45,078 nucleotides of DNA from Microcoleaceae cyanobacterium (GTDB taxonomy: Bacteria; Cyanobacteriota; Cyanobacteriia; Cyanobacteriales; Microcoleaceae). Of this stretch, positions 32,401 through 45,078 are shown one piece after another. How positions within the stretch are numbered: the first letter of the stretch is position 1; the number at the start of each line of letters is the position of its first letter. A program made the position numbers. The DNA lies in NCBI GenBank assembly GCA_051652765.1, contig JBOFUV010000116.1, positions 1-45,078 of the forward strand. Reading direction: 5' to 3'.

Positions 32401-35400
32401 CCCTAGCCCTTTCCCGCCCGGTGATTAGTACCTATGTTGCCGGAATTCCCGAGTTGGTGGAACCTGGTGAGAATGGTTGGTTAGTCCCCGCAGGCTCTGT
32501 GGAAGCCTTGGTTGAGGTCATGCGAACCGCTCTGAATACTCCTGTGGAGCAACTGGCAACTATGGGTAAACATGGAGCTGAAAAAGTGTTTAAGCTTCAC
32601 AATATTGCTACCGAATCTTCTCGATTAGCCACTCTATTTCAAGAGATGAAAGACAAGCGTTCATTGATAACTTGATGGTTTGATACCTTGCTTCAGCCTT
32701 TGAAAATTACCTTTTTTTGACTAATCTTTTGGAGAGGAAGTTTTGTGGTTTCTAGCATTGAGCCAAGATTTAGGGAGATAGTTTGTGAGCATTCAGATCT
32801 AACTTGGCTTGTAATTCCGCTTTGATTCGATTCAAAATGGAGGCTTCATCAAGGGACGCTAAAATCTGTTTGACCACTGCCTTTGGCCCTTCCTCTCCCC
32901 AAGATGCACCATTGGCTAAGTATGCCTTTGTCACCTGACCAATGCCGTAGGAAGAAACGCCTGCAACTCCTGCTTGAGTCACTGCGACTGAAAGATAAGG
33001 AATTAAGCTCGCGCCTCCTGTTGCCGGAATCGCTAGCCCCAACAATCCCTTGAGGGAGCTTAAACCTAAATTGGCTAGGAGTTCGCTGGCACCAATCCCG
33101 CCCACACTCAAGGCAATTCTTTGGAGCAAATCGACTGCCCCTTGCTGGGTCATGGAAATCCCATACAGTTTTGACAAGGCTAGAATCATGGTGACATCAA
33201 TCGCAACGCCACTCAACAAATCAATGAATGTCAGGGGATTAAGGGCGATCGCCACAGACTTGGTCATGACAGCGCTCCAAATCGCTCGATTGGCATTCTC
33301 CTCCCGAATTGCCATTTTCCGTTGCACCAATTGTTCATTTACGTCTCCGGCATAGAGCATGGTGTTGAGGGCAACCAGGGATTTACCTTCCCGATCAAGA
33401 ATTTCCAAGATTTTTAGCTTCAGGTCAGCAATTTGGGGTTCTCCCCGGATCAGCTCTGCTTTGAGAGTGCCATCAGGCCGACGGGCTGCCGTGGCAATCA
33501 ACGGAGAAGCCGCCGCCATGACAATCTCATCAGGGGACAGCAACTCCTTCACCCGTTCATCCCGAATTTTTTGGTAAATTGCCATCCGATCGGCTTCGGG
33601 ATACTGATCAATCTTGTTGAACACCAGTAACATCGGCTTGCCCGCTTCCCGCAGTTGGGACAGGGCTTCATATTCTACCTGGGTAATGTCTCCAGAAACC
33701 ACGAACAGGAGTAAATCTACCTGTTGCGCGACTTGCTTGGCCATGGCCTCCCGAGTTTTGCCATCCACTTCATCAATGCCGGGGGTATCAATCAATTCCA
33801 CCTGGGAGATGTGGTAAGAAATAGGAGCCTGGGGTGCAGGAGCAGGAACAGGGGGGGAGAGGGGAAAATCAGGAATCGGGGGGAATAGGTCGTCTAGGTC
33901 ATCTGGATGATTGGATTCGGAGGTGTCCCCAGTTCTAATTTCCGGTTCTGTGGTTTCTAGCTGCCAATCCTGGGACTGATGAACCCGAGTCACCCCGTGA
34001 ATCGGGCCTGTTTCAAATACGTTCCGACCCAGGAGAGCGTTCAGCACCGAGGATTTACCCCGTCCCACCATCCCAAATACGGCGATTTGAATCCGAGTTT
34101 CTTCCAACTTGGTGAGCATAGACTCTAACCCAGTAATTTCTGTATCGAGTCCGGCCCGCTCCTCTGGGGTGAGGTCTAGGTTTGTGACCAAATCCCGCAT
34201 TGCATCTCGGGCGCGACGCAGGTTCAGCTCTTCTTGGATTTCAGTGAAATCCAGCAGTGTTCGGTTCAGGTCTTCGTCTAGGCTCATCGGCGGTGACAGA
34301 GTTGAAGAGTGTTAGTGACTATCCTATTACGATCTATTGTGGTCTTAAGTGTGGTTTTAAGTGTGGTCTTGGGTGTGTGGGTTAACTGATGGGGGAAGCC
34401 GTCCTAGCTGTCTAAGTCAGGCAAGATGCCCAACCCACAACCTTTCAGGGGTTATTTTTTCTCATTGCTGAGTGCAGGCCATTCCGAGCCAACAAAATCG
34501 GTTTCACTTGGTCAAACCCAAACTTCTGGTAAAAAGCCTGCATTTCTGGTAAGCAACACAGCATGATCCCTTCACTCTAGGATATTCCGAACCTCAAAAA
34601 AAGAGAAGCCTCGGAATTTCACTTTGGATTCTGCAAAACTCTTGCTTCAGATTTTTGTAGAGTTCGTAAGTCGTTCTGAACAATAACCTAATAATCGCGT
34701 CATCTCCCCCAATTGCATCATCACCTGCTTTCATTCGACCATTGCCGATGTCATGTAGACGACGGTGGGTTTTGTGCTTCTCCCAAATCGCTTGTCCCTG
34801 TTCAGATGGAATGTATTTACCTCTTTCCTTGTCAAACCTACCCTTAGCCCACATATAGAGACTGGAACGGCAAATCTTGGAGCCGTGAAATTTCTTCTTG
34901 AGCTGGCCGCTATCTCCTGACTTTTCCAAGGTGTAGCTCAAGCCCAAATAAGCCTGAAACTGCCTTTGAGAGTAGTCATGTTTACTACGCTTCCCTTTGC
35001 TGTTGGTGTGATGTTCGAGATAGACTCGACCGTCGATCAGGAACTTCTCAAAGGGATAGATCTTGCACAGCAAGTAGCTCTTGTTTTTGACCCCAAACTT
35101 GAACGGGCTCATGGCCTGTAAGTATGGCTCAAACTCAGGTTTCCTTAAGAACTCTTCCATCTTCTCCAGGACGTGCAGCTCTTGGCGCTTCAGGTCGCAA
35201 AGGCGCTTAGCATGAAAGCGAGTATAATCACTTAAGCCTGCACCTACAGTTGAACTGTAGGCTTTTCTGAATTGGGAGTAGGTGTGCTCTCCGGCAAGTG
35301 CAGACCAGAACGGGTGACACCCCAACTTGGGGTTAATGCCACAGTCCTTGGCCTCATGCTGAGCCCATTCTGGGAACTCATAGCAAAGCCTTTGCCGAAT

Positions 35401-44400: not shown

Positions 44401-45078
44401 GCTGAGATGGTGAGCAGTCAGGTGGATTTGGATGTCATCACTCCATTAGAATCGGTTGGCTTGGAATTAAAGCTAGAATTCTACAACTTTCCCGAAACGC
44501 CTTATTTTACTAAAGACCGAAGGAAGGATGTAGTCAGAAGTCAATTAGTTGTCCCTAATGCAAACCGAGCCAAACTGGGCTGGAACGAATTTAAGGGATT
44601 GTTCTCAGGGCAAGTTTTCAGCAAGGGAATTTATAGTGGTCTAGCAGTTCTAGACAACGGTAAAAGATTGAAGTTGTACGCTTCAAGCGAACAAGAAGTT
44701 GAGCAAATGTTAGTCAAAATGGCTCAATTGACAACCGCTGAAATTATTTATCCATTGCACATTACCAAGCGAACAAAGTTTGAAGATACCGCTAAAAAGC
44801 CAGACATCAAACCTCAATACTTAGGCTACGTTCACATCGTCAACTGGCCTAAAATCACCAACTACCAAAAGAAGAAAGGAATTAGACCAACTGGCAAGTA
44901 TGGCAAGGTTAGACTCCCGATGCAGGCAAAAGAAAAACCGAGCTGGTGGGATGAGGATTTAAGAAAAGCTCTGTCTACAGGTCTAGCCTAGAAAAGTTGC
45001 TGCACCTCTAGAGGCGCAGCAACTTTTGATAGCTTGCCAGAAACAAAAATTTTATTAATGATGAAAAAGTCCAGTTAA

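Follow-up and report, generated by a model that had tools for sequence, protein, structure and literature searches.

The window, the whole 45,078-nt stretch that was analysed, is contig C116 of a Microcoleaceae cyanobacterium. Its distal part carries the following features, of which the RNA parts are predictions.

34561-34570, minus strand: right target flank, reading GGGATCATGC on the minus strand; host DNA upstream of a DUF697 GTPase gene (32770-34287); homology with C92 stops here
34571-34573, minus strand: right-junction core, GAA (plus strand TTC), found again at the left junction, C19:2571-2573; read from the sequence at both junctions
34574-34593, minus strand: right end (RE), 20 nt from stop codon to core; matched by loop D5
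34594-35874, minus strand: IS110-type bridge recombinase, 426 aa (P0001); NF051857, DEDD/Ser residues, AF2 fold like IS621/ISCro4
35931-35990, minus strand: putative donor-binding loop module with outer stem, internal loop (D5 35984-35974, D3 35947-35935) and inner hairpin; covariance model
36015-36083, minus strand: putative target-binding loop module (T5 36075-36064, T3 36035-36024); covariance model, flank matches
36092-36144, minus strand: 5' hairpins of the RNA, starting GCGG at the predicted ribozyme cleavage site; structure alignment
36145-36242, minus strand: hammerhead-derived motif with CCGC, CUGAUGA, three hairpins replacing stem II, GAAA, stem III, and UU before GCGG; a non-canonical motif reading
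36250-37289, minus strand (the recombinase strand): three small ORFs of 115, 134 and 99 aa, no family match; the last stops 7 nt before the hammerhead motif
37364-38353, plus strand: ORFs of 121 and 175 aa, the longer one conserved among the three genomic copies (55-60%)
38584-39174, plus strand: small tyrosine recombinase, 196 aa, catalytic domain only; PF00589 62.6 bits, homologue kept in 15 loci
39127-39477, no strand: tandem duplication of 176 bp carrying the 3' ends of both convergent genes; self-comparison
39429-40379, minus strand: 316-aa beta-rich ORFan; poor AF2 model (pLDDT 52, 3 sequences)
40407-43171, plus strand: ORFans of 262 and 655 aa; homologue of the 655-aa protein on a Tolypothrix plasmid
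43264-43370, no strand: five tandem 21-nt repeats, iteron-like, in an intergenic gap; repeat search
43453-44991, plus strand: 512-aa ORFan; homologues on two 20.8-kb cyanobacterial plasmids
44992-45027, no strand: 36-nt palindrome near the contig end; the element goes on at C19:85-2573

The 426-aa protein is encoded at only three places in its own genome according to tblastn, in C116 (100% identity), at C92:551-1789 (79.4% over 413 aa) and at C84:535-1551 (27.4% over 372 aa). The same three genes score above the cut-off of 180 bits with NF051857 (361.7, 359.7 and 348.1 bits) and are picked out, weakly, by PF01548, which agrees with the preliminary description of only three IS110-type genes, each ending a diverged block. 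Those blocks, of 13-17 kb, are, as also described there, syntenic paralogues, with 18-80% amino acid identity. Against NCBIfam NF051857 (transpos_IS110_2; curated cut-off 180) the window protein alone scores 361.9 bits. Both of its Pfam domains score under their gathering scores: the N-terminal RuvC-like DEDD domain PF01548 reaches 21.4 bits against a cut-off of 29 (29.5 bits in the C92 copy) and the C-terminal Tnp domain PF02371 20.7 against 21.3, while NF033542 aligns with the N-terminus at 38 bits. The N-terminal RuvC-like DEDD domain of IS110-family bridge recombinases is present in the window protein, its residues D7, E60, D103 and D106 being invariant in 61 aligned sequences and in all three own copies. 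In the same alignment S319 is invariant and S332 is kept in at least 90% of the sequences; both occur in all three own copies, and either is a candidate counterpart of the catalytic Ser of IS621. An AF2 model (pLDDT 94) has chains of IS621 and ISCro4 as its 10 best PDB folds in Foldseek (probability 1.00, E 7e-9 to 1.4e-7, TM 0.54-0.60 on the target, 16-18% identity). PDB sequences searched with the family profile gave no match, nor did GenBank phages searched with the recombinase. These results support the identification of the protein as a divergent IS110-family DEDD/Ser recombinase. The family is present in 25 of 301 sampled genomes, at 1-6 places in each, and surveys run at Pfam thresholds have probably missed this clade.

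The region upstream of the gene holds a conserved RNA structure. A covariance model, R1, has 32 matches in 622,792 bases, all directly upstream of recombinase genes, and 16 of these are from loci outside the set from which the model was built. In the R1 alignment 84.5% of the cells are paired, compared with 72.2% after shuffling (a level reached in 0 of 500 shuffles). Compensatory changes occur in 17 of 23 pairs. Slid controls yield 25-58%. The pair counts lean towards the model structure because the alignment, A5, was fitted to it. For the three own leaders RNAalifold gives 90 pairs rather than the 97 reported before, and the earlier count of 20 pairs with both sides changed holds.

The RNA has two internal loops, with guides of about 7+3+6 nt around a 3-nt core, and these loops match the junctions. 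Near the stop codon 8-9 of 9 nt match the D5 loop in 27 of 30 loci, and the reverse complement of T3 begins exactly 6 nt further on in 19 of 30. When D5 alone fixes the position, a right flank shares 4.52 of 6 nt with its own guide and 1.77 with the guides of other loci (25 loci), and 0 of 20000 permutations of loops and flanks reach the observed value. In the window, AGAGTGAA (34571-34578) has the same sense as the 5' strand of the donor loop, with 8 of 9 nt matching D5; in the right flank (34561-34570) four of the first six nucleotides agree with the reverse complement of the 3' guide in the target loop, and another one could form a G-U pair. The right end that had been placed at 34571 is real: C116 (34571-34581) and C92 (1845-1855) have ...CCTAGAGTGAA in common, and beyond it their DNA is unlike. 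The leader of C92 likewise contains, as stated earlier, a stretch, AATATTTTCA, that complements its own right junction.

The element runs beyond the contig. The proposed join of C116 to C19 stands, with an overlap of 84 nt of which 83 are identical. The beginning of C92, in contrast, overlaps those of C87 and C94 alike at 99/99, as does the beginning of C84, and overlap alone therefore leaves their pairing ambiguous. It was settled as C92-C87 and C84-C94 through the donor loops, because each donor loop matches its own far end; in every copy the far-end match is best for the own RNA (13 against 10-11, 13 against 10, and 15 against 10-11). The predicted left junction matches at 13-16 of 17 nt in nine loci and at 11/17 in L023. 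Among the own copies the values are 13/17 for S1 (the window), 13/17 for S2 and 15/16 for S3; taken alone the 13/17 of the window is near chance in 20 kb (an estimated ~0.2 per locus), and its weight comes from its position and from the other loci. The left flank agrees with its own guide at 6, 5, 6/6, 7, 6, 6, 6, 5, 2 and 5 of 7 nt in ten loci (cross mean 2.4), where the 6/6 of S3 is a right-aligned count made by eye and the left-aligned script count was 1. The own guide ranks first of 30 in 7 of the 10 loci, and the left end matches D3 with a self mean of 5.46 of 7, the cross mean being 3.37. Because the query used to pick left-junction positions contains the left guide, these self-scores are somewhat inflated.

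The target loop thus matches both host flanks, which lie 13 kb apart in the window copy, the donor loop fits the block at both of its ends, beside the recombinase and far away at C19:2573, and the core GAA is common to all junctions. We therefore place the mobile unit between window position 34571 and C19:2573; window 34571-45078 together with C19:85-2573 very probably forms one mobile element of ~13.0 kb. With equal likelihood, C92/C87 (~17.3 kb) and C84/C94 (~15.7 kb) are sister elements elsewhere in the genome. The outer ends of the blocks, which the preliminary description had left unmapped, are thereby located, with GAA at both junctions. A two-internal-loop RNA beside the gene, with loops complementary to flanks and ends that share a core, is what distinguishes a bridge RNA, and on these sequence grounds the reading of the leader as a putative bridge RNA is supported. 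The earlier proposal of integrative elements with a divergent IS110-family enzyme and a bridge RNA is thus supported, and the basis for the bridge RNA has grown from 3 loci to 32 and includes the permutation result.

Element sizes vary, from 3.0 kb (L015) and 4.6 kb (L023) up to 17.3 kb. Joined ends occur among the relatives: L016 reads RE-GAAA-CCCCTGGTTAG, and its left end, with host DNA before it, is found in L012 10.7 kb upstream of the gene; the right end also abuts the left end in L007, in L022 and in the viral contig L055. In L012 the two ends of L016 align next to each other, without overlap, and none of 16 whole-contig loci has a terminal overlap that would close a circle, so the RE-LE junctions could stem from tandem copies. 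No empty site came up when the flank genes were traced in 40 relatives, and in the regions of three that were examined (two of the same genus, one of the same family) the flanks are nowhere adjacent because synteny is scrambled. We also considered L005 as a compact 1.7-kb IS, from its GAAACCCC motif, and rejected it; its own loops predict another left junction, outside the 824 nt available.

The "complete 1.67-kb unit" of the preliminary description does not survive at its left side. Its boundary ACCGCCTGATGAAT (window 36242) is only the start of the conservation between C116 and C92, and near-identity of C92 and C84 runs across it (bases 1-298, 90.6%). ACCGCCTGATGAAT corresponds to a stem I strand and the CUGAUGA core of a hammerhead-like motif. 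In 17 relatives a canonical type I hammerhead motif lies ahead of the RNA. Its cores read CUGAYGA and GAAA, stem II is a hairpin, stem III contains A15.1-U16.1, position 17 is not G, and stem I is open and has 4-6 bp; the sequences of stems II and III change freely with pairing kept. A strict type I search of both strands of 645,277 bases finds 17 motifs, each upstream of the recombinase gene and on its strand, and ten shuffles gave 1 match. At the gathering score Rfam reports no hammerhead in 19 loci; below it, one of eight loci searched, L035, gives a match to RF00163, with 23 bits where the cut-off is 34. The motifs have a very short stem I, whose 3' strand can instead form the first hairpin of the RNA that follows. 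Stem I, the two cores, stem III and U17 are all there in the window copy, with three hairpins standing in for stem II, so it is not a canonical type I hammerhead; it fails the strict search, and Rfam gives no match of any kind in the window at E up to 1. The motif is non-canonical in all three own copies, and judged from sequence the window copy is a variant of doubtful activity. The accessible text of the print sources searched, including 10.64898/2026.10.21.760802, contained nothing that links a hammerhead to a bridge RNA. Neither the hammerhead motif nor the lysis cassette described next had featured in the preliminary description.

The cargo ends on C19 with a holin-like/endolysin cassette. 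The last gene (C19:1974-2567) matches the endolysin family phrog_10051 (E 7.2e-54) and also Peptidase_C39_2, and it is preceded by ORFs with two and one TM-like segments, so that lysis genes of the kind found in prophages and temperate viruses are present. The packaging genes of such viruses were not detected: Pfam, NCBIfam and PHROG recognised no capsid, portal or terminase in the 11-17 kb elements, and searches for capsid or packaging genes in the Atlas, PDB sequences and GenBank phages returned nothing. PDB sequence searches with the 316-, 655- and 512-aa proteins were equally negative, as were those with the 655-aa protein in the protein Atlas (no usable match) and with the 512-aa protein in GenBank phages. 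We considered the 176-bp repeat as a template/variable pair of a diversity-generating retroelement and rejected it, there being no reverse transcriptase and the copies duplicating the two gene ends. In relatives the cargo includes an HTH repressor-like gene, an M15 endolysin and a collagen-repeat fibre-like protein, and the relatives include free 20.8-kb plasmids and one tailed-phage contig. A Tolypothrix plasmid of 20,757 bp has four cargo genes in common with the element and no IS110 gene. The cargo, with its lysis cassette, iteron-like repeats and small tyrosine recombinase, is phage- or plasmid-like. Temperate phages and plasmid-prophages combine an integrase with a recombinase for multimer resolution, for example Cre/lox of P1. 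The present elements resemble them in the lysis cassette at one end and, among relatives, in the repressor-like HTH, small accessory recombinase and free circular forms; they differ in that no capsid, portal or terminase is recognised and in that integration appears, from the sequence matches, to be RNA-guided rather than driven by a Tyr/Ser integrase.

The closest known system is the IS621 group (PMC11208160, in the portion available; structures 8wt6, 8wt9, 9t56), which has the same order of DEDD RuvC-like and Tnp domains and a matching fold. Likewise, the RNA is upstream of the gene with two internal loops, each strand pairing with one side of target or donor, and both junctions have a short core without terminal inverted repeats. 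The window recombinase is ~100 aa longer, with 16-18% identity, the core appears to be GAA, of 3 nt, instead of a dinucleotide, and the element is 13-17 kb instead of ~1.3 kb. According to the same portion of PMC11208160, the bridge RNA of IS621/IS110 elements lies in the left non-coding end, under a promoter rebuilt across the RE-LE junction. In the window family it comes directly after a same-strand ORF, the left end is 10-16 kb away, which leaves it without a junction promoter, and a hammerhead motif lies on its 5' side. With respect to the type I hammerhead (RF00163), the 17 relatives fit the motif, with scores under Rfam gathering and the very short stem I, and the window copy has its three hairpins for stem II. 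Cargo-bearing IS110 elements are already described in a 2026 preprint (Hu, Xie, Yang, Rubin, bioRxiv 10.64898/2026.08.14.744561), in whose available text an IS110 recombinase and bridge RNA likewise bound units far larger than 1.5 kb, with guides matching the flanks of the large unit as they do here. Those expanded elements are accreted, mostly plasmid-derived loci enriched in resistance genes, in contrast to the conserved architecture, lysis cassette and hammerhead of the window family. The preprint's main text has no occurrence of cyanobacter-, tyrosine, ribozyme or viral, and members of the clade may be in its supplementary tables. CRISPR-associated Tn7-like transposons of cyanobacteria (PMC9881144, in the portion available) are also large cargo elements whose insertion site is set by a guide RNA, with wholly different chemistry and proteins: TnsB/C with Cas effectors there, a DEDD/Ser recombinase that would act through a circular donor here.

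Our results suggest the following mechanism. The target loop carries ~7 nt with the sequence of the left flank, together with the GAA core, and ~6 nt that complement the core together with the right flank; the donor loop is laid out alike for the two element ends, the one beside the recombinase and the one at the far side of the cargo. On the model of IS621, the complex of recombinase and RNA would join the element ends to a circle (RE-GAA-LE) and then recombine it with a GAA-centred chromosomal site. A classical junction promoter would be unusable for the RNA at its distance from the left end; it sits at the end of an operon instead. Hammerhead cleavage, in the 17 relatives, would create the 5' end of the RNA and so may serve in its processing. 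The small tyrosine recombinase, or the serine resolvase in some relatives, probably resolves multimers of the circular form.

Could the stretch 34571-36242 instead be a standard 1.67-kb IS110-family IS, resident at the edge of an unrelated island and moving alone, as had been suggested? Its size is typical of IS110 elements, and C116 and C92 resemble each other (75.5% over 1683 nt) in this stretch alone. However, the stretch opens with a hammerhead core and not with an element end, the loops predict no left junction at 36242 and have their best scaffold match at the far end, and C92 and C84 are 90-100% identical across the supposed boundary. Core genes, followed by RNA and recombinase, keep one order across distant cyanobacteria, and the 1-6 places per genome in 25 of 301 genomes are unlike a proliferating IS. 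The lone IS is largely refuted and very improbable. Because the donor loop pairs with a far end 13-17 kb off and the target loop with the flanks of the whole block, recombinase and RNA are the integration module of the whole element. The small tyrosine recombinase could be the real integrase and the IS110-type gene a passenger, given the former's PF00589 and PHROG integrase matches and its conserved position; we find this hardly credible, as the protein has only 196 aa and a catalytic domain, gives way at the same position to a serine resolvase in 7 loci (5 of 5 tested match PF00239), is encoded on the free Tolypothrix plasmid, which is not integrated, and junction sequences track the RNA loops.

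A compact IS may also have accreted unrelated DNA by half-matched recombination, the cargo being passive and not a co-evolved virus or plasmid. A size continuum to ~100 kb and plasmid-derived cargo are described in the available text of bioRxiv 10.64898/2026.08.14.744561; sizes here range as given above, and L021 and L025 share a site but differ in cargo modules. Against such accretion, the order of the core genes beside the recombinase (HTH, c3, c4, small recombinase, c21, c7) is kept across orders, every locus has the RNA on the cargo's inner side, relatives of the cargo occur as free plasmids of 20.8 kb that encode the same small recombinase, and the lysis cassette is at the same end in S1 and S3. 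We consider this explanation quite unlikely. Rather unlikely, too, is that the three copies are immobile fossils in which guides used to match the ends. The mismatched guides of S1, the non-canonical hammerheads and the deep divergence of the copies would fit decay, yet all three recombinase genes are open with catalytic residues kept, the RNA helices are preserved through compensatory changes, the cargo ORFs are intact, and the S2 guides match at 6/6 and 5/7.

We therefore tentatively propose, with a probability of about 0.4, that an IS110-type recombinase with a bridge RNA serves as the integrase of a lineage of 11-17 kb phage- or plasmid-like episomes of cyanobacteria, and of at least one tailed phage. 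The RE-GAA-LE junction would be the attP, the chromosomal site would be written in an RNA loop, and the guide RNA would be cut from a polycistronic transcript by a built-in type I hammerhead. If true, this would be a natural RNA-programmed lysogeny with a ribozyme-processed guide. A hammerhead exactly at the 5' end of the guide would be nature's equivalent of the guide cassettes that engineers flank with ribozymes, and would account for the expression of a bridge RNA far from a junction promoter. Bridge recombinases are being developed for the insertion of large DNA, and this clade shows one that carries 13-17 kb of co-evolved cargo, with an enzyme so divergent that mining at Pfam thresholds would miss it. 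For the genome studied here, three blocks of unknown genes become mappable elements with a readable insertion specificity, linked to small cryptic plasmids of cultured strains.

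The recombinase gene of the window element lies on the minus strand behind a long leader, and the rest of the interval holds ORFs on both strands without a family match, except for a 196-aa tyrosine recombinase. The element runs from this contig (C116) into contig C19 of the same genome, and two sister elements, S2 and S3, lie on contigs C92/C87 and C84/C94.

Features of the window element and of its two sisters
34594-35874, minus strand: recombinase ORF, 426 aa, IS110-type by NCBIfam profile
Upstream of the recombinase ORF, minus strand: leader, 368 nt
35928-36091, minus strand: match to the covariance model of the leaders, 72 bits
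36242-36145, minus strand: hammerhead-like motif, with stem I, CUGAUGA, GAAA, stem III and U17 present
34571-34573: core of the right junction, ...CCTAGAGT-GAA-GGGATCA
C19:2571-2573: core of the left junction, CCAAGTA-GAA-TCGTTAGG
C92:1-1855 plus C87:100-15541: sister element S2, 17,297 bp
C84:1-2024 plus C94:100-13801: sister element S3, 15,726 bp

The 426-aa protein stays below the Pfam cut-offs (PF01548, 21.4 bits against 29; PF02371, 20.7 against 21.3) and passes that of NCBIfam NF051857, 'transpos_IS110_2', with 361.9 bits against 180. In an alignment of 61 homologues D7, E60, D103, D106 and S319 are invariant and S332 is nearly so, and the same DEDD/Ser residues are retained in all three copies from this genome. 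No solved structure was found by sequence with the family profile. When an AF2 model (pLDDT 94) was compared with the PDB, the ten best fold matches were all chains of IS621 and ISCro4 (E 7e-9 to 1.4e-7; TM 0.54-0.60 on the target, 16-18% identity), followed by Nop5 and TIGR-Tas. By its predicted fold, the protein is a bridge recombinase. The family is found above its cut-off in 25 of 301 sampled cyanobacterial genomes, at 1-6 places per genome.

To see how far such elements extend we turn to the relatives. When the ORFs of 44 loci fetched from public genomes were clustered, the same gene series was found ahead of the recombinase across distant cyanobacteria: an 83-aa HTH protein followed by 240-aa and 126-aa proteins, then the small recombinase, then 125-aa and 300-aa proteins and a collagen-repeat protein of 560-830 aa, and lastly one of two distal modules. 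Four contigs (L016, L022, L040 and L007) have the distal genes immediately after the recombinase gene, which is the integrated order circularly permuted. The right end of the relatives follows the stop codon within about 10 nt in many loci; in others the distance is about 50-70 nt. The junction in L016 reads ...gattagAGA-GAAA-CCCCTGGTTAG...; in L012, CCCCTGGTTAG is found 10.7 kb upstream of the recombinase gene, preceded by unrelated DNA and GAAA, and the right end reads ...AAA-GAAA-AGGATTG. A repeated core therefore flanks the whole block of about 10.7 kb on both sides. Two elements are reduced, to about 3.0 kb (L015:898-3900) and 4.6 kb (L023:6605-11225), and still have both ends together with the HTH gene, the RNA and the recombinase; in L023 the hammerhead core is mutated and the left flank no longer fits the guide. 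Two Waterburya loci, L021 and L025, have unlike distal cargo modules, the same chromosomal right flank and matching target loops. A short contig, L008, holds a tRNA gene (324-396; Rfam, 60.8 bits) about 3.3 kb upstream of the recombinase. L007, L015 and L028 come from MAGs labelled Oscillospiraceae, Rhizobium and 'uncultured bacterium'; these are probably mis-binned contigs, or the element family may have been transferred outside the cyanobacteria.

In the genome studied here, the observation of three blocks each with an IS110-type gene, as made in the preliminary description, is real, and such genes are indeed found only on C116, C92 and C84 (79% and 27% identity). The blocks beside them are syntenic paralogues with 18-80% identity. 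The contig joins proposed earlier stand as given, but the pairing of C92 and C84 is ambiguous by overlap, each matching both C87 and C94 at 99/99; it is settled as C92-C87 and C84-C94 because each RNA fits its own far end best. The assembly breaks at C92 and C84 because the first 120 nt of the two contigs are 100% identical and the first 298 nt 90.6% identical (C92:1-298, locus L048; C84:1-298, locus L049), despite recombinases that are only 27% identical. This stretch comprises an upstream ORF and the hammerhead-like motif and stops about 10 nt beyond the predicted cleavage site (288); in sequence it looks like a recent module exchange at the ribozyme boundary. The near-identity also concerns positions 1-544 of C87 and C94. 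The window element is 12,997 bp long. No empty site was found for it, its flank genes being non-adjacent in the three relatives examined. Three tandem 12-nt repeats (TGTGGTCTTAAG) lie at 34338-34377, in the host intergenic flank between a GTPase gene and the right end.

The aligned leaders share two stem/internal loop/stem modules. A covariance model built from 16 leaders gave 32 matches in 622,792 bases, every one directly upstream of a recombinase gene and 16 of them from loci outside the training set. In the alignment behind the pair counts, which was itself fitted to the model, 84.5% of cells pair against 72.2% in shuffles (reached by 0 of 500), and compensatory changes occur at 17 of 23 pairs; with slid partners pairing is 25-58%. 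The grammar of the four loop strands is fixed across loci. The target-loop strands are T5 (about 7 nt, GAA, 2 nt) and T3 (about 6 nt, UUC, 2 nt), and the donor-loop strands are D5 (6 nt, GAA, 2 nt) and D3 (about 8 nt with one bulged base, UUC, 1 nt).

These loops can be compared with the DNA junctions. D5 runs in the sense of the right end and core, and in 27 of 30 loci 8-9 of its 9 nt agree with them (cross-locus mean 6.67). The reverse complement of T3 starts exactly 6 nt past the D5 match in 19 of the 30, and in L020 the same spacing is masked by a tie. With D5 as the only anchor (25 loci), the 6 nt of right flank past the core match their own T3 guide at 4.52 of 6 and the guides of other loci at 1.77; none of 20000 permutations reached the own-guide score. 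The three loci that score 0-2 for the T3 guide are those contigs where ACCCC, the left end, comes after the right end. This is the pattern expected of a loop that specifies the target rather than the donor. A query made of T5 guide, core and D3 complement matched predicted left junctions at 16/17 in L021, 15/16 in S3, 15/17 in L006 and L029, 14/17 in L012 and 13/17 in each of the window element, S2, L002 and L015. In 8 of 10 loci the left flank agrees with the T5 guide of its own locus at 5-7 of 7 nt (cross mean 2.4). These self-scores lean upward, as the junction positions were picked with a query containing the guide; the S3 value, 6/6, was read right-aligned by eye and the other nine are as scored by script. 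For left ends, the mean match to the D3 of the same locus is 5.46 of 7, against 3.37 in comparisons across loci. In the window element T5 (CUAAGUA-GAA) agrees with the left flank at 6/7, T3 with the right flank at 4/6 plus one possible G-U, and D5 with the right end at 8/9; D3 pairs with the left end at GAATC and, past a single bulged base, at GTT. The second complementarity reported earlier for C92 (CAGTAAT with the flank ATTACTG) is present, but it lies in the apical loop of the inner hairpin of the target loop and not in the internal loop. Its equivalent in the window, CAGCAAT (36057-36051), is a near-complement of ATGCTG in the element's own flank (34565-34560). This complementarity may be an extra contact or chance. 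The reading of the leader as a bridge RNA and that of the blocks as integrative elements are both supported, and both are extended beyond their first formulation.

In many relatives the leader starts with CCGC-CUGAYGA-(hairpin)-GAAA-(hairpin)-H, then GCGG. A strict search for type I hammerhead motifs (stems I, II and III each of at least 4 bp, A15.1-U16.1, non-G at position 17) gave 17 matches in 645,277 bases on both strands, against a single hit over ten shuffles. All 17 are on the recombinase strand, with the predicted cut 185-290 nt ahead of the start codon, and their stems II and III vary freely in sequence with pairing kept. The predicted cleavage site falls at the point where the downstream RNA's first hairpin begins on its 5' side; the GCGG of this hairpin can pair alternatively in stem I or in the hairpin itself. 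No Rfam hammerhead reached the gathering score in 19 loci, the best being RF00163 in one locus (23 bits against 34). The core is mutated in the decayed elements L008, L019, L023 and L029, and the motif is absent from the Pseudanabaena group. The window copy has three hairpins in the place of stem II, kept by compensatory changes among the three copies of the genome. At 36211-36206 (minus strand) it has GCGAUC-GCCAC where relatives have GCGAUC-GAAAC, which creates the cyanobacterial HIP1 palindrome GCGATCGC at the ancestral GAAA position; a second GAAA lies 40 nt downstream, ahead of stem III. The sequence ACCGCCTGATGAAT, earlier taken as the end of a complete 1.67-kb IS110 unit, is this hammerhead-like motif and not an end, and a stand-alone IS of that size is rejected. 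In the literature searched on the two topics, no link between hammerheads and bridge RNAs was found.

The cargo is read as an episome of phage or plasmid type. In the window element its last three genes, on C19, encode proteins of 112, 120 and 197 aa. The first has two TM-like segments and the second has one; the third is a Peptidase_C39_2 protein that matches the endolysin phrog_10051 (E 7.2e-54). Relatives encode an endolysin of the Peptidase_M15_3 family (phrog_894, 1.3e-19) and a repressor-like HTH_3 protein, along with a collagen-repeat protein that matches tail-fibre PHROGs. A circular 20,757-bp plasmid of Tolypothrix PCC 7601 encodes homologues of the 512-aa, 655-aa, small tyrosine recombinase and HTH proteins and is without an IS110 gene. 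The IMG/VR contig L055 (21,289 bp, CheckV 58%) carries a relative of the recombinase, with an AAA_25 protein upstream and the left-end-like ACCCCTGG and tailed-phage tail genes downstream. Neither capsid nor packaging genes were recognised among the 11-17 kb elements, and the larger ORFans had no match in Atlas, PDB sequences or GenBank phages. The small tyrosine recombinase is replaced by a serine resolvase in seven loci (five tested, all PF00239) and by a different tyrosine recombinase in S3; we infer that it is probably the multimer resolvase of the episome. A 176-bp tandem duplication with a divergent middle (39127-39477) covers the last 16 or so codons of the tyrosine recombinase and a convergent 316-aa gene, and may be a site or scar of this enzyme. 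At the position of the small recombinase in other elements, the far left of contig L014 (1-504) has evenly spaced repeats with sub-threshold matches to Rfam CRISPR-DR10/DR57, which belong either to a mini CRISPR array carried by the element or to an array next to it. In the window, the gap that separates the 655-aa gene from the 512-aa gene holds five tandem 21-nt repeats (AATAGTCAGAGTTTAAATTTT-like, 43264-43370), which adjoin C-rich CCCAAA repeats (43410-43456); the former look iteron-like and could be a replication origin.

As described in the available text of Durrant et al. 2024 (PMC11208160), classical IS110-group elements are compact, have a core dinucleotide and rebuild a promoter across the junction of right and left ends; their RNA is encoded in the left end, whereas here it is internal. 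IS110 elements can bound large cargo (Hu et al., bioRxiv 10.64898/2026.08.14.744561), so that large size alone is not new; cyanobacteria, ribozymes, tyrosine recombinases and viruses go unmentioned in the main text of that study. New here are a divergent recombinase clade, an architecture of phage or plasmid type that is conserved, an RNA placed internally and a hammerhead motif on its 5' side.
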